NCBI GenBank assembly: GCA_964016885.1
Contig: OZ024740.1
Span: forward strand, 103,788,001-103,852,000
Source: Eledone cirrhosa
Taxonomy: Eukaryota
Direction of reading: 5' to 3'
Length of the DNA: 64,000 nt
Positions 1,094 through 63,880 of this stretch are shown here, piece by piece; within the stretch, counting starts at the first letter, position 1; each line of letters opens with the position of its first letter. Below the pieces are notes generated by a model. It was not told where the DNA came from. It searched no databases and saw only the letters and a program-made list of their open reading frames with translations. The translations under genes and the position numbers were made by a program.

Positions 1094-1168
1094 CTGCTGT
1101 AGTAAAGCTGGGTGTGGGAGGTGGTGTTCCTTGTGATTGACCATTGTTACTAACCTGTTGTGTACTTC
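1094..1168 (-). CDS. candidate 75-nt phase 1-1 linker exon, xSTQQVSNNGQSQGTPPPTPSFTTA
   Basis: gttatgtttcatcccctag|GAAGTACAC...ACTACAGCAG|gtaaat. The 75 nt are open in phase 1 and give a polar, Pro-rich, linker-like peptide. Confidence 0.55.
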
Positions 1169-11800: not shown

Positions 11801-12360
11801 TCTTTGTCCTTAGTCTCCCTTCTCCTTTTAATCCTATTACTTTCCCTTATTTCTGTGATTTCTGTGCTACTGTCATTACTTGTTTTCTGTGTCTGTGTGT
11901 TTGTTAAGATTGTGGTGGGTGGTGAGAGGCATTGAATGCATGTGTGTTGTTGTTGTTGATGTGTGCTGTTGTTGATGTGTGTTGTTGTTGTCTCCGTGTG
12001 TGTTATTATTGTTGTGTGTTGTTATTGTTGTTTGTGTCTGCGTGTCTGTTGTTGTTTCTGGGTATATTGTTGTTGTTGTTGTTGTTGTTGTTGGTGTGTG
12101 TGTTGTTGTTATTGTTGTTTGTGTCTGTGTGTCCGTTGTTGTTGGGATGTGTGTTGTATATGTGTGTGCGTATGTTTTTGTTTTTGTTTTTGAGGCTCCA
12201 GCGCAGTTTTGTAAATGATTTTTCTATTTCTGACAGACAACTAATCATATTTACCTTCTTGAATGTCGCAAATTTTGGGGGTAAACATAACACAGATATC
12301 TCATCGTCGTCTATTCTTGTGTTGCCGTATATATTTGTGTTGTTGAACTCATCTGTTAAT
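8855..12360 (-). mobile_element. Penelope-like retroelement (RT plus C-terminal GIY-YIG, Neptune/Nematis-like), decayed
   Basis: N-terminal EISVLCLPPKF..KLRW (12190-12350); RT 9845-11209 with SMDVVSLYPSI, QEEGAAIG, YVDD; Cys linker CIGKKCITC; GIY-YIG VVYSIRC..VYIGET (9237-9560); stops and frameshifts between pieces. Confidence 0.92.
8995..9037 (-). ncRNA. minimal type I hammerhead ribozyme in the Penelope 3' pLTR
   Basis: Minus strand GTCA-CTGAAGA-g-GTCAC-agagtgt-GTGAC-GAAA-G-aa-C-TA-TGAC: stems I and II and the core intact, CUA cleavage triplet. Confidence 0.85.
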
Positions 12361-33575: not shown

Positions 33576-33846
33576 TATTTATATATATATATTTAGGTTA
33601 ATGCCTTACTTTGGCTTCAGTATGTATTATTTAGAGCAAGCTCAGGCATGCAGAAGGAAAAATGTAGGTTACTAACCTTTCACCCCTTTTTTTTTTAAAT
33701 GACAAAACATAGAAAATAATAATTAAGAAAATCTCGTTAACAATGGCAGACAACAATTTTCAATTACAGAGGAATTAAATATTCAAAATAGAAAACAGAA
33801 TTTATATTGCATCGAAGTGAAAGTTGGAAATGTATATATATATACT

Positions 33847-38820: not shown

Positions 38821-39862
38821 TTCTTTTTTGTGTATGTGATTTTTATTTTTAATTAGTAGTCTTTGTAGATGGGTATATAATTATTGAATGAATTCTATCT
38901 GTACAAAAGTATTGATTCTGTTACTAGAGACATATTAGAATGTCATATGATGTATATAAGGCACATTTTAGACTTGCAAGGACAGGAGAATCAGAGAGGC
39001 TGTGGTGTACATTGAAAGTGAATAATCATTTTTTATGATAATGTTTAAAGGGGAGTGGAAATGAGATAGTGAAACATTGTCAAGGTGAGTTATTTTTAAT
39101 AAGATTATAATTTTCTGGGCTTTATAATTCCATCATAATAGATGAAACATATTTTAATATAAACAACATTTTGATAGGTTTCCATCTCTGATTGTTATCA
39201 GGAATTTCATTCTTGGGACTTGACTAAGGATGAGTCTGGTACCTCATACACAAAAAACCTAATGACAACCAGAGATCAAATTCTTTGAAACATAGTGTAA
39301 ATACAAACATAAAAAAAAATGTTCCATCCTTAATGATGGGTTAATAGATTAAAAATTTATAATTTTATTGTGTAGCATTCATTTTCTAAGGTCATTAGAA
39401 ATGATTGAAAGGAAACAATGATGCTGACTCAGTTCATAGGTAATGTTCACAAAGTGTTGTATATTTATATAACGTGGGGGGAAAAGCATTATAAAGTTTC
39501 AGCAATTCTATAGCCCTTATTGAACAGATTTTTGTCAATGCAGTCCATAGTTCCCTTAAATTCTAGTATCTTTCTCAGCTCGATGGAAGCTTCTTCAACA
39601 CATACTTCTAACACATCACTGCAGTAATAATTATTTATAAGTTTGCTAGAGAACACAAATCTAGGAGAGTGTGCTTAAGTACTCCAGTACTTAAAAGGAA
39701 CATATTTCATCATTTCTGGAAGAATGAAAAGTAAAGCTGACCATTGTGGGAATAGCATTCAGAACTTGAAGCGATGCAACTAAATACCACTGAGTTTTCA
39801 TTCAATGCCAGTAGTGAACCTAGTTGTTAATAATAGCAATAATAAAAACTAGTGTATCAAAA

Positions 39863-40788
39863 TTAAAATCTCTGTAGTTTTCTAGGTGCTCCATACATGG
39901 GCGTTGACAATATATTTTCAAAACCAACAGTATCTGATACATTTCGAAGATTGTAGTCAGATGATGAAAACCTTTGATTAAACCTGGGCATTAAAAATGA
40001 ATCATTGCTTCTATATGAAGGAGACAGATGTGTATTTATATCCTCCAGATTTCTGTCAGGTGACACTGGAACTAGTGGGGAAATGTCATATAAACATGGC
40101 ATTGAAATACTACCATACATGCTTGATGGTTGAGGAGCATAATTAGAAGACATGTTACTATACTGTTCAAAACGAGACCTAGGTTTCACTGGTGATGGCA
40201 TATAGTGTTGCCTTTGATTTTGGCCAACTGGGAAATATTTCATTTGATCATAGGAATCTTGAGGTCGAAGTTCAGGTAAATCTTGAAATCCTAGCTTACA
40301 ATAATTCGGTGGTGACCTTAAGGATGGTAGATTGGAAAGATAATTATATGTTTCAACATTAGAACTAGTTTTGAAGTGATGTGGAGCTATATAGGTATTA
40401 GCTTTAGCTCCCATAGTGAATGGCTCAAATGTAGGCAAACCAGTTCCTCTGTCATTAAAGGTCGCCATTTCATAGAGGTGTTGGGGGTTGTTCCTTGCTA
40501 CATATGGAGTTTGCTTTGGCTGATATGGAGGAGCTGTCTTGAATTTAGGTGGTTCCTCTGGTAGGTCAATTGGTTTTGCTCTCATCGGAACTCTATGGCA
40601 TGGCTTAGAAACCAGCCTGGGAGATGGGGATGAGACCATACCCATGTCATCTAATGGAGGAGCAGAAGGTTGAGGCCGAGCCGCTGCATCAGTAATCGAA
40701 GGTTTATAGGTTGGTACTTGATCTTCTCCATATACATTCAATTTTCTTAGATGTTCATTCAAATTTTCTGAACTAATTTCACTAAAGT
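39863..40788 (-). CDS. 926-nt stop-terminated coding exon (about 308 aa, Pro/Ser/Tyr-rich, probably disordered); probable alternative terminal exon of CaMKII
   Basis: Only long non-repetitive, non-TE ORF in the window (313 aa in the track). It is preceded by tttctctcatctcttgtttatttatgtcattgttgctag|AC, a phase-1 acceptor matching the phase at the end of the RNFS exon. TAA at 39863-39865; minus-strand AATAAA near 39364-39369. Confidence 0.7.
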
Positions 40789-41373
40789 CTAGCAACAATG
40801 ACATAAATAAACAAGAGATGAGAGAAAGTAGACTAAAATATGGCTATATATTCCTACGATTGGTATATAAGGATTGCAAGGGAGTAACTAAGAGTAAAGC
40901 AAAATATACAATGGCTAATAGTGCTATGATGAGCAACTAAACTTCATATATTTAGTATTTTGATATAAAAACTCAGGTGAAAGGTTTCATAAGGATGGGG
41001 TTGGAGATCTGAAGAGCGTGAATCTAATACAGAGGGAGAAACTATACCAAAGTTGATGTTTTATGATGTAAAGTATGAGGGTAACTAAATATGATGTGTG
41101 AATTAGTGAGTAAGACAATGATAAAGAAAAGACTACTGATTGATAGATATAATTATTCAAATACTAATCTGAACACGTTAGTGAAATGATGAAAGTCAAC
41201 TTACAAATCAATAAACATAGCATTTCTGTATTCTAACACACATACTCATACACTAAACAAACATGGCATGACAGAATACAAAGAGGTTAATGATAAATTG
41301 GTTTAGTTATCTATTGAAGTAAATATGCAACCATGTACACACACACAATTTTGTGTGTATGTGCGACAGTGTA

Positions 41374-41410
<37 letters not shown>

Positions 41411-41596
41411 CACACACACACACATACATATACAGGGTGGAAAATAGACCATTCCAAAACACAATAGACCATTTCAAAATACAATAACTCTCTCATTTAT
41501 TAAAAATTAATTGTAAAAAAGTTATTCTATTTAAAAATGGTCGTGACTTTTGGGCGATCCTGTGTGTGTGAGCGTGTGTATATATATATATATCTC

Positions 41597-41785
41597 ATGA
41601 CAAAAAGCACCCAGCCCACAGTGTAAAGTGATTATGTAGGAATCATGACAAAAAGTACCCACCACACACTGTAAATGTGGTTGGTGTTAGTAAGGGCATC
41701 CATCTGTAGAAACCAAGCGAGAAACGAGATAACATATCTAAACCATGCTAGCATAGAAAATGGACATTAAACGATGATGGTGATA
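41597..41785 (+). mobile_element. RTE/SINE 3' module stub
   Basis: Two module units, ggtgttagtaagggcatcc and a catgctagcatagaaaatggacattaaacgatg tail. Confidence 0.7.
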
Positions 41786-42095
41786 AATATGATATTAAGA
41801 AAACAACTTCTAGCATGTGAAAGTCGACCCAACAGAGTAGACAACACGTGTAAATGGAAACTTACATAATTTTTCCCACCCTTTTCTTTTGGATGGGGGA
41901 AATTTGTCTCAAATGTGTTACATGTTTGTGTCCGAGAGTACATATCATACAAACCAAAACAACACACACATACATGTGTGTATGTGTGTGAGTAAATAGG
42001 TAACAACATTTCTTTGTTATATTATAGAAACAGCTGTGTTCAAATTTTCAAGTTTAATCTCTTCCATTAAGGGTTTGTTATATATATATATATAC

Positions 42096-42136
<41 letters not shown>

Positions 42137-42138
<2 letters not shown>

Positions 42139-45100
42139 ATGGCTGCAAACTCTGCCAAGAGTATTGCAATCGCTTGTCAGATTCAGATCTTGCACTCCTT
42201 CACACACTGACGACAACTATGGATCTCCCTGGCTTGAGGTCCTGCATCAGGTTGCCGATTAACCCTCACAACACCAAAGAGATCATAGTTCACTGGTTCT
42301 CTTTGAACATGGCTGTGACTGTGGCTCCTGAGACCAGAGTTGCTCAAGCAAATTTTTCCACACTCAGGGCACTTCAATTCAATGGAGACACCGATCGTTT
42401 CGAGAGATACATGAGGGCATTGCTTACACACATCCCATTTGATCTTCTCGTGCTCTATGCGTCTGTCCTCAAAATTATGGACCCCATCATTCACCATTCC
42501 ACGCCAAGTTTCTCTTCCAAGTGCTTCTATCTCCCAGTCAGTCATCATCAAACCAGTTTTTTTCAATGAGTCCTTTACACAATCCTTGAATCGGAGCCTT
42601 GGCTTGTGAGGTGGTCCCTTACCCTCACAAAACTTGCCATACAAGAGTTGTTTTGGGATTCGATCATCCTCCATTCTGCAGAGGTGTCTGGTCCATCGCA
42701 AATGCCGTCGATGGATGATACTCTCAATGCTCCAACACTCACTTCTCTCAAGGACATCAACATCTCTCACATGCATCTGCCACTTGATACCAAGCATCTT
42801 TCTGAGACACTGCTGGTGAAACCGTTCCAGTCTGTGGATATGCTGTTTGTAGGCAACCCATGTCTCACATGCATACAACAAAGCTGACAGTACGCATCCA
42901 GCACACACTCTCACCTTGGTCCTCATTGTGATTCCTTGCCTGCACCAAAGACAGTCGTTGAGTCTTCCAAATGATTCACTTGCCTTACTAACATGTAGAC
43001 CAGCTTCTGCATCCATAGAGCAGGTCACACTCAGAGTACTCCCCAAATACACAAATGTGTATGGAGGGTTTATTGAAAACTTTATCCGGAGCTGGTTGGT
43101 ACATGACGACAGTCTTCTTCAGACTGATTGTCAGTCCCAAAGCATTGGAAAAAGAATTCATAAGGTGTTGCATGTCACTTTGGGAGTGTGCAAAGAGATC
43201 ACAATCATCTGCATATACAAATTCTCTGATCAAGGTACTCAGTATCTTAGTGTTGGCAGTGAGACACCTGAGGTTAAACAGCTTGCCGGAAGTGCGATAT
43301 CTGAGATAGATACTGTGTTGACAATCCCTGAAGGCCATGAAGAACACCATTGTGAAATACAAGGCAAACACCATGCTTGACACCATTTTCAACTGAGATT
43401 GGCTCAGACAGTTTACCTCCAGCATTCACCCATGCCTGCATGTCATCATGGAAGAGTTTCAGAATGTTCACAAACTTTTCAGGACAGCCCAATCTCTCCA
43501 AAATAACCCACAAAGCCTTCCAATTAGCCTTTCGATTAACAGTGTCAAATGCCTTGGTCAGATCGACAAAAACTTGGTATAAGTCCATGCACTGCTCAAT
43601 GTATTTCTCTTGAAGTTGTTTGGCCGAGAGGATCACGTCAACAGTGCCTCTGCCATTCCTAAAGCCACATTGGGACTCAGGAAGTACCTCAACAGCAATG
43701 TGCTGTATCAATCTGTCCAACAAAATCCTTCACAAGATCTTCCCAGCCACAGATAGCAGCGAGATACCTCTGTAGTTGCCACAGTCATCTTTGGCTCCCT
43801 TTCCTTGTACCACCATCAATGCATCTTTCCAGTCCTGTGGTACATCTTCTTCATTCCAAACATTCACAAAGAGATCAGTGAGGCGGTTTAAGAAGTTATA
43901 ACCAGCAGACTTCAAAATCTCGGCACTAAGTCCATCCATTCCAGGTGACTTGCCGCTGTTTAATTTGGCAATGGCCTTTGCCACCTCATCAAATGAAAGA
44001 GGATCAGCCATTGCCAGCTTTGTAGGTCTGGATGGAATCAACCGGATGAACTCATCATCAATTTCTGATGGTCTGTTGAGAAGCTCATCAAAGTGGTCAT
44101 GCCACCTGATCAGGATTTCCTTCGGATCTCTGAGCAATTCCTTGCTGTCCCTGGAGCAAAGTGGTGATATTTGTGAACCGGTCGGACCATACACCTCCCT
44201 GAGCAGACTGTATAAGAGCTTTGTATCATGTCTATCTGAGGCCTTCTGGATTTCATCAGCTTTTTGGCTCCACCAGGTATCCTGCATGGCTCTCAATCAA
44301 TATTGCACACGTACCTTGATCTGCCTGAAGGTCTGGTCACTCTTGTCAGAACGTGTCTCACACAACAATGATGTCTGCACTTTTTGTTTCTCTTCAAGCA
44401 AGGTCTGGATCATTGCATCATTTGCATCGAACCAGTCTTTATGCTTTCTATTGGCATGACACAAAACTCCAGCACTAACATCATAGACGGTTTTCTTCAA
44501 TGATTCCCATGTGTTTTTACATTCCAAGGGCCCAAGGGACTTCAACAGCTCAGCTCTGACTTTCTCTGTTTTCAGACGAGCCACGTCTAGTTGTTTTGGA
44601 AGTGCAACCTTCTTCTCCCTTACTTTGGACTTCACAACAAATTGAAATTTTGCGAGCATCATATGATGGTCAGTCCAACATTCTGCGCCTCGCAATACAC
44701 GAACCAATGTGATATCCCTGATATCACGTTTCCTCGTTAAAACAAAGTCAATAAGGCACCACTTCCTGTAAACTGGATGCATCCAAGTTGTCTTATATTT
44801 GTCTTTCTGCTGAAAGAGCGTGTTCCCAACAACAAGATCCATCTCAGTGCACATCTGCAACAGAAGTAGGCCATTGTTATTGCACTTACCTACTCCATGC
44901 TTGCCCATCACACTCCAAGCTTCCCACTCATTACCAACATGTGCATTAAAATCACTAAGGATGACAATCTTGTCTACATAAGGTATACCATGGATGACCT
45001 CTCTCAAAGACATGTAGAAACTTAGTTTTTCATCATCACTGGCACACATAGTAGGAACGTACACACTGACCAGAATCACAAAGCGGTTTTGAATCAGAGG

Positions 45101-45370
45101 GACTCATGGACATTTTCCGATCATTGAATCCACAAGGAAGATTTTCCAGCTTTGAAACGATTCCATTCCCTCCAATAGAAGGTATATCCTCCCTTCTGTT
45201 CTGTGAATTGACTCTCACCTGCCAATCTCGTTTCTGAAAGAGCAACGATGTCCATGCTATAGCGATTGAGTTTCCTCAACACCAAAGCAGATCTTCTTTC
45301 AGGGCGAGTTTCACTGGACTGGGAATAAAGTAAAGTTCTTACATTCCAGCATCCAATATTCAGAGGTTTG
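42137..45370 (-). mobile_element. near-full-length decayed RTE (BovB-like) LINE: APE, RT and C-terminal zinc finger
   Basis: LNIGCWNVRTL start; SDFNAHVG, TDHH; PESQCGFR, FVDLTKAFD, YADD; CPECGKICLSNSGLRSH; 3' ACTC-loop-GAGT hairpin then GCAGCCATC and (TA)n. Confidence 0.93.
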
Positions 45371-46216
45371 AACCTCTTTGCAGTATATATAAGCTTTCAC
45401 TCCACTCATACAAATTCTTTTGTAGATACTCATCTTGAACTTTCCTCTCAGTGCCACATTTTGCACTATCCAACACATACACTGTACACGCATCACTTAG
45501 ATCTCATTTATGAGTGATGATGAAATCAATCATGTGTCCAGGCTTGGATCATGGATGATACCAGGTCGTTTTATATTTGAGCTTCTGATGGAAAAGAGTA
45601 TTGCAGATGGTTAAGTTGAGTTCTGAGTAGAGTTTAAGCAACCTCAGGCTGTTTGTGTCATTTTACCAATACCAAATAGCCTGAGTGTGCCTCATTATGA
45701 TTGTTTAACATTTATCTTTTCATGCTTGCATGGGTTATACGAGTTGCCACATTATGAAGCAAGTCAGGGCAGGTGGCTATGTCTTGCTCATGCAGATCTG
45801 TATTTTGGCTTGGTTTCTACAGCTGGATGCCCTTCCTAACACCATCCACATTAGAGCATGGACTGGGTGCTTTTTCATTGTCACCAATAACACCACCCAC
45901 CTTACAGAGTGGATTGGGTGCTTTTGTTGTGGCACCAGATCATCATTCATGGAGGACAGTACTTTTTTGTCATGGCAACAGCATCGTGGGAGATCAGATG
46001 TGGAATTATATACACACACACACATACAGATATATATCCTCACTTCCTTCCTGTGCAGTCATTTCTGGCACTATATATGAATAATGGAGTGCCCATCCTC
46101 CATCCAAATCAATGGTACCAGAGCCATGGAACTTTCTTGAAGAAGCTCAGACTATATCTAGCTGGTAACACCTAGTCTTATCCACTAATTCCTGCTCCTT
46201 ACTTGTAAAGGTTGTA

Positions 46217-46500
46217 ATGTTTCAGTTACCAATCCTCAAAACTTCTTCCATTCTGGACCCTCTCTGGGGTGCATCCATTCCACATCTCCCAGGACAAATC
46301 GCAAACCCATCACCACTTTTTATGACATTGGATGGAGGTTGTGATATATATTTTGAACAGGCCCTCTACTTAAAGCATTCCATGTTATCATGTATACAGG
46401 ACGATGTAGTATGATTGCTTTTATTGCATCTGACCATACTGTAGTTTTGGTGGTCTTATTCATGCCAATCACAATTAAGATGCGGCTGAGATCTCGGATC
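46217..46500 (-). mobile_element. old repeat homologous to 62440-62760, possibly a Gypsy pol connection fragment
   Basis: The two loci share gcatccat.ccaca.ctcccaggaca..tcgcaa.ccc; minus peptide GLR(F/H)VLG.V.WM resembles the LR-FLG-GW motif. Confidence 0.4.
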
Positions 46501-46659
46501 ACCATTTTTAGAGGCAGCCTTTATTTGACTTGTAACTACATCGCTGGGTTGTGAAAGTTTTCTTGAGAGCTAACACTGCTCTATCTCACCTAGTAGCTTA
46601 CCACTATTGGGTTCTGAGTTGCTTATTCATCTGTTTGGAACCCAATTCATGCATCTAAG

Positions 46660-48050
46660 ACAGTCATATATCCTAATGGGAGACTTCAATGAACATGTTG
46701 GCACTGACCACCTGACATGGAAAAGAGTGATTGGAAGGAATGGCAATTCTGATCTAAATGTGAATGGAGAGGCCTTATTAGACTTCTGTTCTGTTAATGG
46801 GCTTTCTATTATGAACACCTTCTTCTAGCACAAAGACATCCATAAATATACATGGCATAAAAGAAATTGAGGACAGAGATCACTAATTGATTTTGTTATT
46901 GAATCTGATCTCTTCGTTTCTGTGCCTGATGTATGTGTTAAGACAGGGACTGAGCCGTCAACTGATCACTATTTAGTTATTTGCAATCTGAGACTACCTA
47001 AAGTCAAGAAAACTCACAAAAATAGCAGGTCCAGCTTGACCTACAGGATAAAGTGGGAAGCACTAACTGATGAAGTAGTCAGGACCAGATATGCAGATAC
47101 TATTGCATCCAAATTCAGAGAACTAAGGAAGTTAAAACAGCATAGAAACTGTTCAGCTTGGAAGTTTATGCTTCAGCTGTTAAATGCTGTAAGCAAAGGA
47201 GACTTGACGTAACACTGGGAGGCAAGGGGACACCTTGGAACAATCAAAGAGGAGACTTTCAAGGCTTGGCTTGGTAATAAGCCCACCTTCTTGCACTTGC
47301 AGTACAAGCAAGCATGAAAAATCAGAGAGAGTAAAGGAATCCAAAGTAAAAGAATAAAGTATTCTGGCAGACCATCCACTAATTTCATCTGCCATACTTG
47401 CTATCTGGAACTTATCTGGGGTGCTCCTTTCTAAAGTGAGGTGCATCCTTACAAGGTAGAGAGAATATTTGCTGATCTCCTAAATCCGGCAACAAAAATA
47501 CCTTCTGATGTACATGACTAACTTCATGAAGGCTGAGATCACCAGAACAATCTAAGAGCCCAAATGTGGCAAGGGCTCTGGGGAGGATGAAATTTGGCCT
47601 CAGATGATAAAAACCTTTAACAGAGAATGTATTCTCCAGATGACTCGTGTGTGCTGGGTGGCCTGGATCGCTGGAAAGGTACAAAAGCAATCAGGACTGA
47701 TAATCTCAATTTTCAAAGAGTGAGACAAGACAGATTGCTCTAATTATAGAGAAATCACCTTGTTAAGCTTCCCTGGTAAAGCCTATGCTAAGTATCTGGC
47801 AAAGAAATGTAGGGATATTGTTGAGTCAAAGTTAGCTGATGAACAGTGTGGTTTTCGTCCCAGATGCAGCACAGCTGATCAAATATTCACACTGCAGCAG
47901 GTATTTGAAAAATTGAGGGAGTATTGCCAAGGGATGTATGCTTGTTTCGTATACTCAAAAAGGTATACAACCACATTTCATAGGACTTGTGGAAGGTTCT
48001 GAAGAAGTATGGGATTGATGGACGACTTCTAGTTGTCTTGAAGTTCCCAT
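46660..48050 (+). mobile_element. heavily decayed RTE fragment (APE C-terminus to RT N-terminus)
   Basis: ILMGDFNEHVG, MNTFF, TDHYLV, EQCGFRP..STADQIF. Confidence 0.85.
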
Positions 48051-48409
48051 ACGAATTCCCTAGCATTTTCATTCGATGTGTGTATATATGTAGCTGATGG
48101 AAACAAACATGTTTTTTAACTTTTAATCCTTTTAATACTTTTTTCTGCTACTCTTCTTTGATGAAGGGTTTAACTTGAAGCAAAAAATCTTTTCTTTTTC
48201 CTTTCAGATACATTTTTCTATGTTCTATGTGCATATATTTTGTCTACCATATGTCTACTTTTGTCCAGCTTGTTTAATCTTATATATTATTATTATTATT
48301 AGTAGTAGTAGTAGTAATAGTAGAACAGATTATGAAGTCCTCTTTGGATTTTGATCTTTGTATTTATTATATATATATATAATAAATACAAAGATTATAT
48401 ATATATATA

Positions 48410-48970
48410 ATAAATACAATGAAATGAATTGAGACAGAGAGTGAGCATAAGAGGAATCAAATGCTGTGTGCAGGAGAGGCGGTTGCGTTGGTATCTACAT
48501 GTAATGCGTATGAAGGATGACAGCTGCATAAAAAGATGCAGAGCACTAGAAGTCGATGGAAACCGCGGAGTGGGGAGACCCAAGATGACCTGGGATGAGG
48601 TGATAAAAGCCGACCTTACCCAATTACACCTCTTCAAGGCGATGACACACGACTGTGATCTCTGGCGTGACACAGTAATACAGAGTACCCGACCTCCCAT
48701 GGGTACAAGCTGAAGCATATAGACAATATGCCCCCACACCTCCCACCGCAAGGTGGTTGTGGAGGTGCCACAGCAAAAAAGCACCCAGCCCACACTGTAA
48801 AGTGGACGTGTAGGCGCTACGAAAAAGCACCCAGCACTCACTGTAAATGAGGTTGGTGTTAGGAAGGGCATCCAGCTGTAGAAATCAAGCCAAATCAGTT
48901 CCTGTATGAGCAAGGACAACCCGTCTAACCCATGCTAGCGTAGAAGAACGGACGTAAAACGGTGATGATA
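48410..48970 (+). mobile_element. RTE family A 3' fragment
   Basis: RRLRWYLHVMR...PPMGTS* plus the 3' UTR modules. Confidence 0.9.
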
Positions 48971-49039
48971 TATATATATATATATATATATGATATATAT
49001 ATATGGAGGGGTATAGAGGGCCCATGAGTCCAGTAAGAC

Positions 49040-52000
49040 ATCCTCTCTAGTACTGGTGGCATGAATAAAAGCACCTAGTCCATGCTGTAAAGTGGCATTG
49101 GTGTTAGGAAGGGCATCCAACCAGTGTATCAATGCCAAAACAATTATGAGCACAGCAACAAATATATAGGAACAACAAAAATATGAAGACGTCGCATCTC
49201 AGAGTTGCAACACAATGTTGGCACTCTCAGAGGTAGATCTGGTGAAATAGCAGAGATGCTGGAGAGAAGGCATGTGGATGTGTGCTGCGTGCAAGAGGTG
49301 AGATGGAGAGGTGCCTCTGCGAGACTAGTCGCAGGCAAACATCTTAGCTATAAGCTTTTCTGGGTAGGTAAGGATGATGGGTTAGGGGGAGTAGGCATTT
49401 TTCTGGCTGAGAGATGGATCAATAAGACAATAGAGGTAGTTTGAGTTAATCGAATAATTAAGCTTAGATTAGTTGTAGGCTACTCACAATCATCTCTGCT
49501 TATGCTCCCCAAGCAGGCCTAGGCAAAGAAGAGAAAGACTGCTTTTACGAGCAACTTTTACAAATATCTGCAATGACAGAGGACGGAGACATGGTTATGC
49601 TAGAAGGGGACTTCAATGGTCATGTTGGACAGCTCCAGGATGGTTACACTGGGGTACATGGTGGGCACGGTTACGGCTCAAGAAATGAAGGAGTGAGACT
49701 TCTTGAATTTTGTGATGCAAGTACACTGACTATTTGCAACACCAACTTCCAGAAACCTGCCAACCACCTAATAACCTACAAATCAGGCGAGCACATAAGC
49801 CAGATTGGCTTCTTACTAGTTAGGCAGCGGGACAGGTAGATGGTGTCAAATACCAAGGCATACCTTGAGGAAGAATGTACCCCACAGCATAGGTTAGTTG
49901 TTAGTGATATCTCAGTAAGCAAGAGATGGAATGAGACATACAGGAAGGTGTGGAGAAGAAAGGTCTGGAGGCTAAAAGACCTTTCACTAAAATACAAATT
50001 TAGGAAAGCCCTTCCAGATGTGTATGACGAAAAAGAAGACGATTTAGATATGTATGACATAGATAATAACTGGAATTTCTTACGTGACAACTTACTGCAG
50101 GCTACTGAGGAAACTTGTGGCTGAAGCAGAGCTCCAACCAGACAGAGAGTGACCTGGTGGTGGAACAGCACAGTAGATAGGGCCATTAGAGACAAAAGAC
50201 TAGCATGGAAGGCTTGGAAAAAGGGTGGGAGTAGAGAAGGATATACAGCCGATAAGAGAGAAGATAGTCGTCAGGTGTACTTAGCACGCAGGGAGGCTGA
50301 AAGTAGGAGGTTTGCCAATGTTCTGCGATGGGAAGATCAGAGGCATGTGGTGTTCCACATTGCAAGGCAGTGTGTCAATGCAAATCAGGATGTTGTTGGA
50401 GATAAATGTGTCCGGAATGATGCCGGTGTACTTAGTGTCACGGATGATCAGAAAAAGGAGGCGTGGAAATGTCATTATGAGAGACTGATGAATGTGGAGA
50501 ACGAATGGGACAGAGAGAAATTATCCCTAGTAGATCCGACAGAGGGACCAGCTATTGAGATTGACGAATATAGGGTCCAAGAGGCAATTAAGGAAATGAA
50601 AAATGGTAAGGCTTCTGGACCATCGGGGATAGTTGCTGAGATGCTGAAGGCATCAGGGGACGTAGGCACTAAACTGGTTGCACGCGTCATCAATCAGGCT
50701 ATATATGGCAGTGTCATACCCAAAGACTGGTGCAGAAGTATTCTCATAAATTGCTACAAAAGTAAAGGGGATGCTCTGGAGAGGAGCAATTATAGGGGTA
50801 TAAAACTGATGGATCAGGTTATGAAAGTGGCAGAGAGAATATTAGCACAACTAATTAGAGAAAGGGTCAAACTAGATGAGATGCAGTTTGGTTTTGTGCC
50901 TGGGAAAAGTACAACAGATGCCCTCTTCTTGGTGAGACAATTACAAGAGAGGTTCTTAGAGAAGAATAAGCCACTATACTTAGCCTTTGTTGACCTAGAG
51001 AAGGCCTTTGATAGGTAACCCTGATCTGTTATCTGGTGGTCCCTAAGGAAACTAGGTGCTGAGGAATGGCTTGTGAGGACAGTGCAAACTTTGTACAGAG
51101 GTGCTGTCAGTAAAGTCAGGGTAGGAATGGAGTTTAGTGAGGAATTCCAGATTCAAGTAGGAGTACATCAAGGTTCGGTCCTCAGCCCGCTCTTGTTCAT
51201 AATAGTCCTCCAAGCCATAACAGAGAAGTTTAAGACTGGCTATCCATGGGAACTTCTCTATGCTGATGATCTGGTTCTTATAGCAGAATCAGTAGAGGAG
51301 CTAGAGAATAAATTCTGGCTATGGAAACAGCAGTTGGAAGCAAGAGGACTGAGAGTGAACCTAGCTAAGACAAAAGTATTGATGAGTAGAAAAGAGGACA
51401 AAACTCTGATTCCGTCAGGAAAATGGCCATGTTCGATATGCAGAAAAGGAACTGGCATAAATTCTATAAAATGCACACAATGCAGGTCCTGGGTACACAA
51501 GAGATGTAGCGGGATAGCAGGCAAACTAACAGGTAGGGAGAAATATGTATGCAGTAGATGTACAGGGAAATTAGACAGTAGAAGTCGCACTGATAGACAC
51601 ATTTCTCAAATGCGAGAGGGCGCTATAGAAGTGGTGGATAGCTTCCGGTAGCTAGGAGATCAGATTAGCATGGGAGGGGGGGGGTGTTCCGAGGCCATAG
51701 TATCTAGAATAAGGACGGGTTGGAAGAAGTTTAGGGAGCTGCTTCCTCTGTTGACGAAGAAGGGTTTCTCCCTGCGTACGAAAGGCCGGTTATATGATGC
51801 CTGTGTGAGGAGTGCGATGCTGTATGGTAGTGAGACATGGGCAGCAACTGCAGAAGATATGTGACGGCTGGAGAGAAATGAGGCAAGCATGCTTCGTTGG
51901 ATGAGCAATGTCAATGTGCGTGAACGACCCAGCATGGATGTGTTGAGAGAGAAACTGTGCTTGGAGCGATAGAATGTAGTGTGCGAGAGAGGAGACTGTG

Positions 52001-52262
52001 GTGGTATGGACATGTGATGCGCATGGAGGATGACCGATGGGTAAAGAAGTGCCAGGAAATGCCAGTTGAAGGAAGACTTGGTAGAGGTAGACCACGAAAA
52101 ACAATGGCGGAGGTGGTGAGAACAGACCTCAGATCGCTGAAGCTCACAGTGGAGATGACGAAGGACCGTGACAAGTGGAGAGATGCTGTGCTGAATAAGA
52201 CCCATCCCACCCTTGCAAGCAGGGAAAAGCGGATGTAAAATGATGAGGAAGATGATGATGAT
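49040..52262 (+). mobile_element. near-full-length decayed RTE LINE (family C): APE, RT and PHD-like Cys cluster
   Basis: NVGTLRGR..CVQEVRW, GDFNGHVG, MQFGF, FVDLEKAFD, YADDL, CSIC..CTQC..HKRC..CSRC, YGSETW; terminus cccacccttgcaagcagggaaaagcggatgtaaaa(tga)n. Confidence 0.95.
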
Positions 52263-52469
52263 ATATATATGACTCTTCCAGTGACATTCTGCTATGTAGT
52301 AAAACATATCTACTGTAAGAGATCAAATGATTCATTACATTCTGATGTCAAGGAGTGACTCATAATATTCAATGTCAATTTTTTGGTGGGTCTTATAGAT
52401 TTTTGATACCCTCCTCCAATTTATAAATTTATAGCAGTTTATTTTTATTTCAGACTCTGTTATTGCTAT

Positions 52470-53080
52470 ATGGTAAATTCTGGTGATATGATAAACTAGT
52501 GCTATGTGGTAAATTAGTTGTGTGTGATAAACTAGTGCTGTTTGGTAAATTAGTTGTGTGTGATAAACTATTGGTGCATGGTAAATTAGTTGTGTGTGAT
52601 AAACTAGTTCTGTGATATATTAGTGCTGAGAAATAAATTAATTTTGTGATAAACTCTTGATGAACAATAAGCTATTGCCATGTAATAACCAAGAGGTATG
52701 TAATAAAGTATTGCTATGTGATAAAATAATGTTATAAGATAGAGATGTATGATAAAATAGTGCTCCATTTAATATGGCCACCATGAGACTAATCTTTGGC
52801 TTGAGGACAATTTCCTACCACTAATGTTGAGGTCTTTGGAAAGGTTTCTGGGTGCTGCCCTTCTCACTAAGGGTTGAAAAAAAAAAAAAAAAGAAAGTAA
52901 TTTGTGTGATAAACTAGTCCTGTATTATAAACTAGTACTGTATTATAAACTAGTACTGTAAGATGAACTAGTACTGTATGATGAACTAGTCCTGAATGAT
53001 GAACTAGTACTGTATGATAAACTAGTATTGTATGATGAACTACTACTGAAAGATGAACTAGAGTGATGTATGATAAACTA
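52470..53080. repeat. two related minisatellites (about 35-bp and 18-bp units sharing TGATAAACTAGT)
   Basis: gtgataaactagtgct.t.tggtaaattagttgtgt at 52490-52640; tgat(a/g)aactagtactgta about 9 times at 52905-53080. Confidence 0.85.
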
Positions 53081-54829
53081 TGGCTTGGATGTCATCAACT
53101 TAAATGATGAAAATTTAACAGTGTTGAATCAAGTGCTAACAAAAGCTCTGATCAAAACATTACAGTAAATGGCTGAAGGATTAAGATATGAAAAAAACAT
53201 TCTAGAAATAATATCAGACTCCTGATTTATTGAGGTCAATAAATTCTTTCATTTTATAAGAAATTAGTTGAATAACTAATTCTTTTAATCAGAATTTATG
53301 TTAGGATAGGAATGGTGGACAGTATTGGGGTTGATTCTTCCTCTATATCTTTCTCACTTCCTCCCTATCACAGTTTCGCCTTCTCTGGAAGAAATTGGCT
53401 ATGTTCAGACATGGAGAAAGGATGGTCTCCACTAGGTTTACAATGTCCAAGAAATGTTGTATGTCACTAGAGTGGCCCTACCACTCCATCAGGAGTTATG
53501 TGTTCATACATACAAGTGAAAGAAAAGCCTTTGAGCCAATTTTTAGTTGAATTATATAAATAACAACTTAAACAGTTTCAAAAATAAACTATCAATCCAT
53601 CTAGTAAACTTGAAGAACTTTCCATTATCAAAATTCTCAAAAGTTTTTACAGAATGTTTTCAATGTATTTTGAGAAGCAAACAAAATTACACACCTCTTT
53701 ACTAAACTGTATTTTGCTGAGATGTACATTTGTGTATGGAATGTTAAATAAAGGTAAATGAATTATTGGCATGCTCCAAGCAACTATGATTAACATTTTT
53801 ATGCTGGAATATTCATAGCATCATGCTGTCAATGAAATCTAAACTGAATTTTCATCATCTAGTGTGTCGTGTATTTTAAAGTAGTCAACTTTGAGTGTTT
53901 ACAACTACAGCAGAATTGATATGAAGATAATATGGTATTGTCAATAGAAGTGGTTGCCATTAATATAAAACACTAAAAGTTTAAAAAAGTGAATGGCATT
54001 TTAATTTTAAAACATTTTACATTACACTGTGGAAATAAGTTATTAAAATGTAAAAATTATGAAATTAGGAAAGTATGTTTTAATGAAAACAAAAAAATGT
54101 GAGAAATAAAATAGAAATTGTTAATTTAACAATACATTTTCTTAAAAATTAGAAATTAATTTTAAAAAAATTATGCATTTGTTAAGAGTTACTCTGTATA
54201 TTAGGCATATTTACTTTAAAAAAAATACTTGTATAGCTGAGAAATAACTTCAATGTTACAATAATATATCAAGAACAAAATTTGAAGAGATAGCTCTAAT
54301 CATACAATATATGTACACACACAATAAAACCTATTGTATAACTGGCAAAGAGTAGCGATTATTGCAAATAGTGAAATAAATTCCATGAAACATTAAATAA
54401 AATATCTTTTCAAAGTGACAGCTTATTAATAAGAAATCAATTTACAGAGAAGACAAATTACTTTGTTAAGAACATTAAGGTATTTAATAATAACATGTGG
54501 AAGAATTTGTGTGTGTGCGCGCATGTGTGTGTATATATATATATATATATATTCAAAGATACATGTTTGCTCCATATGGAAATGCTGATATTTAAAGAAA
54601 TATATAAAGTATATTTAAAAGAAATAATATCTTTCAGTGTGTAACATGTCATACAGTCAATTTTGTCAAAATTAAACAATTACGATTTGAGAACAATCGT
54701 TGGCAAGTAAATGTACAGAAAGAAAATTATCTTCAGCAGTTATGGAAACATTTAAAATAGAATCAAAAGATGGAAATTAAGAATGACTTTGGAAAGATGA
54801 TAATGATAATAATTGTTTCTATATTATTT

Positions 54830-55065
54830 GTAATAATAATAATAAATATAATTTCTAATTCAGGCACAAGGTTTGCAATTAAGGGGAAGGAGAAGGTTGA
54901 TTACATTGACTCCAGTTCTTGACTTGTATGTTAATTTATCAATCCTGGAGAGAGCAAAGGCAAAGTTGACCTTGGTGGGATTTGAACTCAGAATGTACAG
55001 AGCCATGACTAAATACCGCAAGGCATTTTCCTCGACATTCTAATGATTCTTTCAATCCACTGCCC
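54830..55065 (-). mobile_element. full-length SINE family B (diverged)
   Basis: Minus-strand GAGTTCAAATCCC B box; body as in the other family B copies. Confidence 0.8.
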
Positions 55066-55724
55066 TAATAACAATAATTATTATTAAAACAACAATAACA
55101 GGTGGCAATATAATGCCAGGTAGCTATAGTATTCAAATGAAAAATCTCAGTCAAAAGTAAATCAAAAGAAAGCCAGGTGTTAATAATAAATGTCAGTAAG
55201 ATTGAATATAAGATCAACCAGTATACACCAAGACCACAAGAGGAGTACAAGATTAGTTGGAATACAAAATATTTAAATATCACTCAGCAAAATATAAATA
55301 CTATGAAAAGGAGATATTAAAATTTATTAAAATAAAAAATAAAAAAAAGCTACAGCAGCATATTTCATGTAATTCTATTATACTTGAAATTAATTGTTCT
55401 TATTATTAACATTATTCTTTTCTGTGATATTATCATTGTCTTTAGATGTGTGTACAATATTTATACCTATATTATGATTAAACCAATTTGATCTTCTATT
55501 ATGAATATGTAACATGGTCCAAGACTGGATTCAAACAAAGATCCTTTATTCTTATCCACTAAGTACATTCAACAGTGGCTCAGTAGATAAAGATATTGCT
55601 ATTCTTAGTTTAGAAATAATTTGGAAAATTATAATTTCAATCAATTATAGAATGGTTTCATCACTTGATATTTGTTATCCAGCAAGAGAAATTATAACTT
55701 ATATTCTCCATTCTCTCCGCTTAA

Positions 55725-55978
55725 TCGATTGTCACAATCCCAGACCTCATTCACTAACCTAGTAGGGTGGAGCTCATCAAATCAAACCAAGGAAACAATG
55801 TTTTCATTGGTCTTTCCAATTACTGATACTATCTACTGGTTGCAACTCCTGGCAGAAAGAACAACATGAAATAAAATGTCTTGCTCAAAGACATAATGCA
55901 TTGATCGATCTGGGAATTGAACTTGCAACCTCATGATTGCAGATCGAATTCTCTAACCACTAGGTCATGCACCTTCAC
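55725..55978 (-). mobile_element. diverged CORE-SINE
   Basis: tctaaccactaggtcatgcaccttc head (reverse), gaaataaaatgtcttgctcaaagacata CORE. Confidence 0.7.
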
Positions 55979-56269
55979 TGACATGCAACATATTTCAAGC
56001 TATTTATTAAAAAATCTTCCCAAGACATCATATATCTATGAGTAAGAAGTGACTCCATATTTTCAGGCATTCGATGACATATAATGTTTGTAGTTATTTC
56101 TATTTAGATAACTACATGCTGAGATGTTCAGAGAACCAAACTTTTCAGGTCTCATTTATTTCATAGTATCAAAATCTTAGAAAATGACAATAATGCAACA
56201 AAAGGTCTATGGTATTTGGCCTGAGCCTGAAAAATCTAAAATATAATGGATGCACTAGTATGTTTTGGG

Positions 56270-56550
56270 CTTCTGAGTGTTCCAGTTGTTTGGTCCATAG
56301 AACAGCCTGTTCATGAAATTAAAGTGCAAGTGGCTGAGCATTCCATAGACACATGTACTCTTATAGTTTTCAGGGAGATTCAGCAAGACATTGTGTGGCA
56401 AGGCTAGCCCTTTTAGTTACAGCTACAACTCATTTTTTTCCAGCTGAGTGGACTAAAGTGATGTGAAATGAAGTGTTTAGCTCAAAGATACAACACATTG
56501 CCAGGAATTGAACTCATATCCTTGTGAGCTGCACACCCTAACTGTGCACT
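56270..56550 (-). mobile_element. diverged CORE-SINE
   Basis: cagctgagtggact..tgtgaaatgaagtgtttagctcaaagatacaac..ggaattgaactca. Confidence 0.7.
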
Positions 56551-59500
56551 TTACAAAGCACTAGCATAATTGGATAGGAAAACCATGAAAAGCTATGCAG
56601 TATGACATGTCAGAAGACTTAAGGTGATGTCAGCTGCAATCATATTGGAGCAAATGTTACAGCTAGCAGAACAGATCTCTTGTCAATTCTAACAAAGGAG
56701 AGAGTATTTTAGTGAAGTGAATAGATTAAATTATTCTTAATTAAATCTTTCTCTGATCTAATTACCTCCGTTTGATTAGCATAGATTAGTTGAAGTCAAT
56801 GGTAGTGATACGCTTAACATGCAGATAGTCTAAATTATTCAACAGTATTATATGGTGGTTAAGATACAAATAGAAAATACGTTATCAAACAAACCAGCTC
56901 TATATGACAAATCAGTAGAAAGGTCTATCCAATTACATGTCTCCAGTATTAAGGTGATTTACAACAAATATTTAACATTTTTGTTAAATTTTTTTAAAAA
57001 TTTTGCTTAAAATAGTATCAATATTTACAAGTGGTGTGATAAATAAGTTAAAGTCAAATGTATGTGTGCCAATATGTTAATGGCAGGTTTAAAAGAAACA
57101 TTCAAATCACAATAATGAGTAGCCCAATTATATTTGACAGAGGAACTGTAAAAATTGAACAGACAAATATTATAAAGAAATTCATGTCTAAAAAAAAAAA
57201 AAATAACCTCAGTGCCAGAAAGGTTATCAAAACAATAGTATTCATAACAACACACAATATTATGTAATTAGTTAAATGTTATTCAAAGACACCCTGCTCT
57301 TCCAACATTATCACACACAAAGTTAAAGCTGAAGTAAATTATCACAAAGGTAATAAAGGTCAGAATTTCTTAACTTCATCTGCATTGATATATTATTAGC
57401 AAACTACTTGTTAACCCCTTTCCTGACTATTTTTTACAAAGATGTCTAAAGTGTTTCAATTAATTTTCAATATTATCAAAAGTTTGGAGGGGATTTGATA
57501 CAATATCTGAAACTTTATATATTGGTATATATGTTGCTGTTGGCAAACTTGTATACATGTTGCAGTTATCTGTTATATATCATGCTAATACTGACCAACT
57601 GGTATATATCCTGCTGGTTGTATAAAACAATAGGAACAAATGAAACACTTCTCCATTGAAAGTATGCTACTTTCTGCCCAAACAGCAAGACAAAAGGTGC
57701 CATGGTAAAAAAGAAGTTTGAAAAACATAAGATTTTGATGGGATATAAGCAACCAATAAAAGTTAGAAATGGATGGGATTACCTTTATGACATTGTTAAA
57801 AACAAAAGAAAAAAAACTTGCTTTTACTTTTCCTCACTTCACCATTTTTTTTCTATTGAATTCAGTGATTTAAAACTGCAGAATAGCAGTTAATTTAACA
57901 AAATCTAACTGCATGGTAATAAGTTTAAATTTCACCAATACACTGTTTAATGCCACTAATTCTGCTAACCTCAGTCTGTCTGACCGATAAAAAATTCCAC
58001 TCCTACTTCATGGCTGAATGATTAGTGGGTGAACTGTAAAAAAAATAACAGCTCCAACAAAAAACACTATCCATGCTAGTATGGATGTAAAAAAATCACA
58101 GAAAGGCAAAAGAAAAAAATGGTGAAACAATGATTAGAGAGAAAAATATATTTTGAAGTTTATTGTTCACAAATTATCTTTTATCTCAAGGGCCTGCCCT
58201 TCTAGTACTTTAGTAGTTTTATTCTACAGAAATTAATTATAGGCGAAATGGAATTTCTTAGTGTAAAAAAACTGTTGAATCTGAATGTTATGAATATTAA
58301 TCAGGTGAAGACCTTAAAAATGTTTTAAGTTTCAATTCTGACTAGCTAATGAAATTATTTCGAATCATGCAGGTTTTAAGTTAAAAACATTTAGTACACT
58401 ACAGGACATGAAGTCAGTGATTTAAAATCTCTGAAAGAATTATACAGTAAATTGTCTGAGGCATAGCTTCCTTGAACAGTATTCCTATCATGATATAGGA
58501 TAAAAAACAGGTACACCTGGTTAATTTACACACCTGATTTTATATAATTTACTATATAGACAGATAGTCTGGTCAAGTTCTTTCAATAATATAAACAAGA
58601 CAGTAGTATTAAATATAATATTAAAACTATTGGTAAAAAGCAACAGCCAACATTTAGGAAATAAAATTGAAATAATTGATAACGTAAACAGAAGGCATCA
58701 GAGGCAAGTTTGGCATAATTTAACTGTAATTATATTTGTGGCAAAAGGTAAATATATATTTAGCAAGTGAAACTACTGTAGAAATTTTCTAATGAAAAGT
58801 GAAGTTAAAGCTGAATAAGTGATTAGGGAGATGGACACAACAGTAATGGAAACTTCTAACCAAATAAAACCTTAACGAAAATATAATCCTAAAATAATTT
58901 TATATAACAAATTCCTTTAACGAGAATGATTGAAATGCTTATCCTTTTTCTTAAAGAAATTAAACTGAAAAATATTCTATCCCAAGCAATAAAAAAAAAC
59001 ATTACTTCAAATTTAGGACTGGAAATCAATTTAGAAAATGATTAGGCATTTCAGCAAAATACAGGAGTATTCAGGGCCATCTTCAGATCTTTAGCTAAAC
59101 AATGTTTACTCTGAAATCAGATTTCTAAATAGGGCTGTAGCAAGAATCATTGATATAAAACCTACCCTTATGTCACATTGTTTCCTAATATAAGGAGCTT
59201 CATCTAAATAGAAGTTCACACTCAACACAGGCAACAATAGCTGGGCTTATTTTCATAATGGCAAACTTCCTGCTGTTTGTATCGCTCACATATACTTCCT
59301 TATGAGACTGTTTGAATGGCAATACTAAGTAGGTAACAAACATCCTGTGAAACTATATTCCTTGATTTACCATGCAAGAGAGGAAATATGCAACATTTCA
59401 ACTGATTTTAGAGAACAGTAATGCTGAAATAGACTATTGCAGAACTTGTTATACAAAAGGCAGGTATAAGATTTTGACTTTTGATTAACATTCTCTCGTG

Positions 59501-60473: not shown

Positions 60474-60482
60474 CTTTGTTTA
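60474..60482 (-). CDS. candidate 9-nt microexon (phase 1-1, about I-N-K) in the CaMKII linker
   Basis: atgtcattctttgttgctttctttgtgtggtatag|TAAACAAAG|gtaagt: pyrimidine tract with a UGC motif, perfect donor, frame-preserving, about 0.7 kb downstream of the RNFS exon. Confidence 0.55.
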
Positions 60483-61216: not shown

Positions 61217-61259
61217 TGGAGAAGTTTCTGGTTGCCAGCATAGTGGTAAGAATAACACC
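61217..61259 (-). CDS. CaMKII: CaMKII exon (43 nt, phase 0 to 1) encoding GVILTTMLATRNFS: end of the calmodulin-binding regulatory segment with the T305/T306-equivalent residues
   Basis: Minus strand reads cctttctttcaccttgcag|GGTGTTATTCTTACCACTATGCTGGCAACCAGAAACTTCTCCA|gtaagt, with canonical acceptor and donor. The peptide matches the CaMKII hallmark GAILTTMLATRNFS with one A>V change. The exon position just before the variable linker fits CaMKII gene structure. Confidence 0.93.
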
Positions 61260-62835: not shown

Positions 62836-62881
<46 letters not shown>

Positions 62882-62883
<2 letters not shown>

Positions 62884-63183
62884 TCATTTCATTTTACGTC
62901 CGCTTTTTCCCTGCTTGCAAGGGTGGGACGGTAACTGATTCTGGCTTGATTTCTACAGCTGGATGCCCTTCCTAACACCAACCTCATTTACAGTGAGTGC
63001 TGGGTGCTTTTTTGCCGTGGCACCTCCACGACCACTTCATCTCATTTCTACAGCTGAGTAAACTGGAGCAATGTGAAATAAAGTGTCTTGCTCAAGGAAA
63101 CAACGCATCACCCGATCTGAGAATTGAACTCACAACCTTTCGATTGCAAGGCCAATGCTCTAACCACTAAGCCATGTGCCTCC
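62882..63183 (-). mobile_element. young CORE-SINE family A
   Basis: Reverse complement of 63198-63545 except for a deletion of about 30 bp. Confidence 0.92.
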
Positions 63184-63197
63184 ATATATATATATAT

Positions 63198-63545
63198 GGA
63201 GGCACATGGCTTAGTGGTTAGAGCATTGGCCTTGCAATCGAAAGGTTGTGAGTTCAATTCTCAGACTGGGTGATGTGTTGTTTCCTTGAGCAAGACACTT
63301 TATTTCACATTGCTCCAGTTTACTCAGCTGTAGAAATGAGATGATAGGGACTGCGGTCCTTATCATTCCACTGCAAAGTGGTCGTGGAGGTGCCACGGCA
63401 AAAAAGCACCCAGCACTCACTGTAAATGAGGTTGGTGTTAGGAAGGGCATCCAGCTGTAGAAATCAAGCCAGAATCAGTTCCCGTCCCACCCTTGCAAGC
63501 AGGGAAAAGCGGACGTAAAATGATGATGATGATGATGATGATGAT
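63198..63545 (+). mobile_element. young CORE-SINE family A
   Basis: A and B boxes, CORE, pseudoknot module, RTE-C terminus, (ATG)n tail. Confidence 0.92.
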
Positions 63546-63557
63546 ATATATATATAA

Positions 63558-63880
63558 TCATCATTTCACATCCATTTTTCACTCTAGCATGGCTAGGACA
63601 TGCTGACCCTTTTGGAGAGAATCAGGTCAGAGGACCGTATTTCACTCAACCGGGGCTGATTTTGGCTTGGTTTCTACAGATGGATCCCTTCCTATTGCCA
63701 ACCACATTTACAGTGTGTGCTGGGTCCTTTTCGTCATGTCACCTACATGACCACTTCACAGCATGGACTGGGCACTTTTTGTCGGGACTTCTACACGACC
63801 ACATTACAGTGTGGACTGGGCACTTTTGTCTTGACATATGACCCCTATACAGTGAGGGCTGGGCACTTTTGTCATAGCTC
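63558..63880 (-). mobile_element. RTE 3' UTR-like stub with about 4 tandem module units
   Basis: Repeated ...cag(t/c)gtggactgggcactttt(t)gtc... units and ggatcccttcctattgccaacc. Confidence 0.7.

Follow-up and report, generated by a model that had tools for sequence, protein, structure and literature searches.

A candidate alternative last exon in an octopod CaMKII gene, predicted to replace the hub with a tail of conserved length

CaMKII exons around an open tail frame

The window, a 64-kb stretch of DNA from Eledone cirrhosa (contig 103788001-103852000 of a 3.0-Gb genome; positions are those of the window unless given as contig positions), carries part of a CaMKII gene on its minus strand. 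Eight Octopus CaMKII isoforms were compared by tblastn with 264 kb around the window and microexons were located by pattern search. The exons recovered follow one another on the minus strand as the last kinase exon, the regulatory exons, the RNFS exon, the linker exons and the hub exons; a search of 50 kb further upstream recovered no earlier kinase exon. The regulatory segment, with a T286-type RQET site and a TT pair, is encoded by exons at contig 103858351-103858268 and at 61259-61217 of the window. The latter, the RNFS exon (61217-61259, minus strand), ends the calmodulin-binding segment with its TT inhibitory sites and RNFS, and closes with a phase-1 donor. The hub exons lie 94-140 kb past the low end of the window as placed by tblastn, and when a hub exon served as the query, CaMKII isoforms of O. 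bimaculoides, O. sinensis and O. vulgaris matched it at 97% identity.

The linker exons include a 9-nt INK microexon (60474-60482, minus strand, bounded by AG and GTAAGT), which precedes the tail in isoform X11 of O. sinensis and is found in CaMKII isoforms of scallops, a snail, O. sinensis and O. vulgaris too; the scallop CaMKII representatives carry the hub domain PF08332. Further along are a 9-nt VK microexon (33677-33685, minus strand), equivalent to the RVK/GVK peptide of Octopus isoforms, and a 75-nt exon beginning with GSTQQ (1094-1168, minus strand), both belonging to hub-bearing isoforms. The 75-nt exon, put forward as a candidate in the initial annotation, is a real linker exon with 96% identity to O. 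sinensis, and since the hub exons all lie beyond the window, none falls between it and the tail frame described below, as had been stated. All these exons keep phase 1. The acceptor of the VK microexon is unusual in having an A-run ahead of its AG (50% pyrimidine).

Between the INK and VK microexons lies an open reading frame, hereafter the tail ORF, whose coding part occupies 39863-40788 on the minus strand. Behind an AG at 40790-40789 come two phase bases, 307 open codons (40786-39866) and TAA at 39865-39863, which gives 308 codons with the split first codon included, inside a stop-to-stop frame of 326 aa. Such a frame of about 308 codons, opening after a phase-1 acceptor on the strand and in the phase of the RNFS exon upstream, was the observation from which the analysis started, and it was recovered at the same place. 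In shuffled DNA of the ORF the longest six-frame ORF had a mean of 77 codons and a maximum of 213 (2000 shuffles). GC content by codon position is coding-like (0.47/0.44/0.26), and the peptide and the coding DNA have one match each in the genome by protein and DNA search, so that the tail is single copy. The peptide is rich in P, S, N, Q, Y and F (P 13%, S 11%, N 7%, Y 6%) and predicted to be disordered, in agreement with the low-complexity P/S/Y/N composition first described.

The tail acceptor (40789-40832, minus strand) consists of a 42-nt AG-free zone, 70% pyrimidine, ending in TAG at 40791-40789, and its tract falls inside the range of 12 other acceptors examined in the same CaMKII gene (50-91% pyrimidine). 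It is phase-compatible (phase 1), and O. sinensis X11 joins at the same residue. The interval from the INK to the VK microexon has 762 YAG sites, 52 of which have a tract as good as that of the tail acceptor. Two of the 762, at 40788 and 40650, combine a tract of at least 16 pyrimidines with a phase-1 frame that stays open for 150 aa or more, and both lie inside the tail ORF. The site at 40650 (minus strand) is an in-frame YAG with a good tract just past a PSAP motif, and splicing to it would shorten the tail to 261 aa and remove PSAP. The best GT within the tail ORF scores 1.3 on a rough ad hoc matrix on which two real donors reach 3.5 and 5.7, and tail motifs are absent from 47/47 hub-bearing Octopus isoforms. 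An internal donor that always spliced onward to hub exons had been raised as an objection to a terminal exon, and the weak GT sites together with the absence of tail motifs from hub-bearing isoforms suggest that the tail exon is not spliced onward. Contigs from three sequencing runs (one sample, one study) are unspliced through 38856-41364 at a depth similar to that of unique intron DNA, and therefore these runs behave as genomic DNA and are uninformative on splicing.

The 926 nt originally assigned to the exon proved to be the length of its coding part only. With the first AATAAA after the stop (39369-39364) the whole exon would be ~1.45 kb, and a putative 3' UTR would extend over 39345-39862 (minus strand), its low end being a prediction; 10 AATAAA/ATTAAA hexamers are present in 2.4 kb of AT-rich DNA past the tail stop. 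An old dispersed repeat of ~110 bp, which matches no fewer than 39 further sites at 72-88% identity, lies in the putative 3' UTR (near 39680-39805).

Inspection of translations by eye showed broken LINE-type reverse-transcriptase-like ORFs, together with a further pair of long ORFs of repeat-like appearance, in the intron at 42000-45100 (minus strand), 49400-51700 (plus strand) and 9845-12021 (minus strand). Very high contig depth over 41400-56700 marks multi-copy repeats, and a near-perfect inverted pair of short repeats, also seen by eye, is arranged about a TA run at ~63190 (62870-63580). The upstream kinase intron, at ~84-114 kb in window coordinates, holds mobile-element-like ORFs of 423 aa (minus strand) and of 302 and 375 aa (plus strand).

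Octopod relatives of the tail

A search of 1.84 billion protein representatives returned one full-length tail match, P0003 (Logan; 313 aa, 60%); P0004 (E 2e-6), a repetitive protein with ~30 residues matched, was rejected as spurious. A profile search added XP_052823880.1 of O. bimaculoides, a 313-aa protein labelled 'trithorax group protein osa-like' whose accession comes just after the CaMKII series of that species (X18 is XP_052823878.1) and whose contig has the length of the one carrying the CaMKII models there. The cluster of this protein includes XP_036358779.1 of O. sinensis, a RefSeq prediction of 626 aa labelled CaMKII isoform X11 and made up of kinase 1-315, INK and the tail, in which the junction matches the microexon and acceptor of the window in frame. 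A direct 61217-to-40788 junction had been expected at first; the annotated junction passes through the INK microexon instead. As the O. sinensis isoforms are listed by falling length (X10 640, X11 626 and X12 621 aa), we infer that no 623-aa model joining RNFS directly to the tail is annotated, and the 9-nt exon joined to the tail acceptor in the X11 model presumably came from RNA alignments.

X11 carries Pkinase (PF00069) at 14-272 and no CaMKII_AD (PF08332), whereas the control isoform X18 has both. It retains the regulatory segment (RQET site, TT pair), and its kinase part matches that of X19, a hub-bearing isoform of O. bimaculoides, at 315/315 residues. It is the one isoform without a hub among 48 full-length Octopus isoforms examined, a count that is no gauge of the frequency of hub-less isoforms since most of these were retrieved by hub query. 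Among the species seen, the kinase-tail fusion is modelled in O. sinensis only. X11 has the same architecture, acceptor and stop position as the window; it is labelled as an ordinary isoform, and the window contributes a more distant octopod in which the frame is conserved.

Searches of the representative database and with the profile found no tail relatives outside octopods; as the tail evolves fast, an orthologue in squid or another mollusc could escape detection, and the tail need not be octopod-specific. In metagenomes 0 of 235 pattern matches were confirmed, and the ESM Atlas gave no usable match.

Four octopod tails were compared, namely those of the window, O. bimaculoides, O. sinensis and P0003. 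Each is 308 aa long with its frame intact, the other three at 59.5-61.8% identity to the window (O. sinensis 61.8%), and as the three non-window tails are close kin, the set amounts to essentially one deep comparison and three shallow ones; the O. bimaculoides and O. sinensis tails are 92% identical and their kinase parts 315/315. Six indels (1, 4, 7, 1, 10 and 1 codons) are all in frame. They total 24 codons yet cancel exactly to 308 aa, whether by chance or because the length is constrained. When substitutions were simulated neutrally on the window ORF to 57-64% amino acid identity (d 0.2-0.25), a mean of 7-10 stops arose and at most 1 in 1500 runs was stop-free. The mean BLOSUM score of the tail substitutions is -0.38 to -0.51 vs. 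-0.62 to -0.70 +/- 0.15 under neutrality, and the identity runs are neutral-like. Across the four sequences the frame, length and end point of the tail are conserved while most residues are not, the substitutions being just marginally more conservative than expected under neutrality, and this near-neutrality makes the case for a sequence-specific function of the tail weak.

The short docking motifs P[ST]AP, PPxY and RxxS/T bear on the same question, as the tail of the window was initially described as containing PSAP, PPNY, RLVS, RFSS and RNVS, and all of these are present. P[ST]AP, in the form PSAP, is kept in 4/4 tails, as are YGSI and the terminal RF, whereas PPNY and the three RxxS motifs occur in 1/4 each, so that the docking-motif argument stands on PSAP alone; an identity run of at least 10 also arises in 37-70% of neutral simulations at the divergence of the tail. 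No Pfam family was found in the tail. FoldIndex is negative in all four tails (60-69% of its windows) and positive for kinase and hub, and the aromatic content of the tails is 9-11%. AlphaFold gave the tail a pLDDT of 43.8 with one short helix from a 3-sequence alignment, which is too shallow to prove disorder, and gave X11 without an alignment a pLDDT of 34.8, poor even on the kinase and hence uninformative. The tail is predicted to be disordered.

A probable hub-less isoform and its rivals

On sequence criteria the tail ORF is a real and conserved coding exon, and we propose that it is likely to be an alternative last exon used after RNFS and INK, giving rise to a hub-less, probably monomeric CaMKII of ~626 aa with a predicted disordered tail. 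The idea of a hub-less CaMKII isoform in the initial annotation thus holds in outline, as X11 consists of kinase and tail without CaMKII_AD and the frame is open in four octopods, and it is altered in its details. The transcript of this species would be spliced from RNFS through INK to 40788, cleaved past the AATAAA at 39369 and polyadenylated near 39345. Judging from mammalian truncations, an isoform with an intact regulatory segment would keep autoinhibition, activation by calmodulin and the T286-equivalent site, and without the hub it would be unable to form 12-14-mers. Lacking these, the isoform would autophosphorylate poorly in trans and would follow Ca2+ rather than store it. An X11-type isoform, as its predicted sequence stands, has no hub and so does not qualify as a CaMKII holoenzyme subunit, though the gene has hub exons downstream. 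The tail would most likely set location or partners through bulk properties (length and Pro/Ser/aromatic content) and not through a fold, with the PSAP stretch perhaps contributing to targeting, and choosing the tail exon would also divert transcripts from holoenzyme subunits.

It is possible, and in our view unlikely, that the tail ORF represents chiefly a nested gene of one exon or the product of an intronic promoter, encoding a kinase-free disordered protein of 313 aa from ATG 40804, with the fused X11 as a minor splice-in. A nested or independent gene had been named at the outset as a way in which a CaMKII exon could be mistaken, and O. bimaculoides RefSeq does list a separate 313-aa protein, XP_052823880.1, which like P0003 starts at its own Met at the position of the window ATG; UniRef A0A0L8GXN8 likewise has the tail as a protein by itself, M-S-L-L stands at the same place in the window, and fast evolution would suit a tissue-restricted young gene. 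As gene callers must begin at Met, the ATG of the window alone is independent evidence for a stand-alone start, and a match of four codons often survives this degree of divergence (estimate ~0.15). That in-frame ATG (40802-40804, minus strand), placed 16 nt before the acceptor, sits within the pyrimidine tract and has T at both -3 and +4, a poor context. INK, GSTQQ or GTPTV exons are present in 0/19 O. bimaculoides isoforms, and the annotation of that species may lack this stretch of the CaMKII gene, which would account for the stand-alone model there. Fused and stand-alone products could both exist.

A more elaborate proposal, which we think quite improbable, is that octopods evolved a switchable hub replacement in which a new last exon, reached via a microexon, substitutes a 308-aa Tyr/Phe-patterned disordered tail (~10% aromatic, one per ~10 residues) for the rigid 12-mer. 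Such a tail would gather the kinase into condensates, and trans-autophosphorylation would then rely on phase separation instead of a ring, in learning-lobe neurons with high camkII.

The tail exon might also be spliced in while the tail itself does little, selection acting to end the transcript before the hub and thereby on holoenzyme dosage, or the isoform being a tolerated minor product. We hold this to be very unlikely. The near-neutral residue changes, the absence of a Pfam match, atlas match or confident fold and the mostly unconserved motifs are what would be expected of such a tail, but 4/4 sequences keep all 308 codons and the same terminal RF, and as early stops in the last exon would be harmless under selection for truncation only, full length in all four counts against it.

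A chance open frame or transposon remnant is extremely improbable, for although the 264-kb region has 99 ORFs of at least 200 codons, with LINE-like and other mobile elements and simple repeats as their sources, protein and DNA searches each place the coding part at one locus, which led us to reject a transposon origin. The coding part also has no Pfam match to element proteins, and it has orthologues with intact frames, which together with the stop counts of the neutral simulations largely refute a chance ORF.

Comparison with known hub-less CaMKII products

CaMKI and CaMKIV are single-subunit kinases switched by Ca2+/calmodulin, and the proposed hub-less octopod isoform would work like these monomeric enzymes; its kinase is CaMKII by sequence (the 315/315 identity to X19) and so lies outside the CaMKI and CaMKIV families. 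Truncated CaMKII cDNAs have reportedly been described in older work on human tissue and Drosophila. AlphaKAP and calspermin, a product of the CaMKIV gene, are parallels to a stand-alone 313-aa protein. AlphaKAP, like the octopod isoform, is an additional product of a CaMKII gene and parts kinase from hub; as described in the passages of PMC5882894 drawn on here, it is the mirror case, a hub without a kinase made from an alternative promoter, and it models the stand-alone rival only by its intronic start.

Natural splice variants with impaired holoenzyme formation are also known in mammals, as the betaH and betaeH forms treated in the same passages (PMC5882894) show. CaMKII splicing outside the linker is said there to be uncommon in mammals, and betaH, ~2% of beta transcripts, was presented in 2018 as the first known mammalian variant in which even part of the hub is missing (PMC5882894). 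Unlike the tail exon, which would replace the whole hub, betaH lacks no more than 78 nt of hub exon h2 and remains able to bind alpha hubs (PMC5882894).

The regulation of CaMKII is commonly accounted for by its ring. According to the sections of PMC8506966 consulted, inter-subunit autophosphorylation at T286 needs the holoenzyme, and when mammalian CaMKII is truncated it is a monomer in which T286 autophosphorylation is impaired. The engineered and patient monomers (alpha 1-316 and R396stop) combine, as here, a kinase and regulatory segment without a hub, and in the parts of those reports that we cite they showed no GluN2B binding (PMC8506966, PMC12236485). They are, however, artificial or rare alleles without an added tail, whereas the octopod tail would be an evolved and conserved exon (PMC8506966, PMC12236485). 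A preprint states, in the portion cited, that truncated monomers potentiate synapses only if made artificially phosphatase-resistant (PMC12236485).

Our literature searches, which left most subscription journals outside their coverage, found no paper on a hub-less cephalopod CaMKII; RefSeq already contains a prediction of the fused protein for one species, and discussion of it in papers was not found. Term searches of PMC10642921, PMC9252440 and bioRxiv 10.1101/721589 yielded nothing further. In the relevant part of one preprint camkII is high in octopus vertical-lobe cells, isoforms not being separated there (bioRxiv 10.1101/2022.01.24.477459). As another attributes the maintenance of vertical-lobe LTP, in the part cited, to an NO/NOS switch (bioRxiv 10.1101/2024.12.25.630295), a memory role of the hub-less isoform is not to be assumed. 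If our preferred reading is true, a conserved exchange of hub for tail in octopods would amount to a natural experiment in the uses of CaMKII without a hub. It would also matter for single-cell work on the vertical lobe that scores camkII as one gene, as 3'-tag reads at the putative tail poly(A) site would stem from a different enzyme. The tail itself clearly exemplifies a new coding exon that has held its frame and length but not its residues.

Variation elsewhere in the gene was noted as well. An optional 37-aa exon at contig 103659115-103659225 lies between two hub exons, within the hub domain; it is 100% identical to O. sinensis, occurs in many Octopus isoforms and could alter ring assembly. 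The Octopus isoforms P0006 and P0007 carry two versions of kinase segment ~115-131, which, for these Octopus proteins only, suggests mutually exclusive exons of the catalytic domain.
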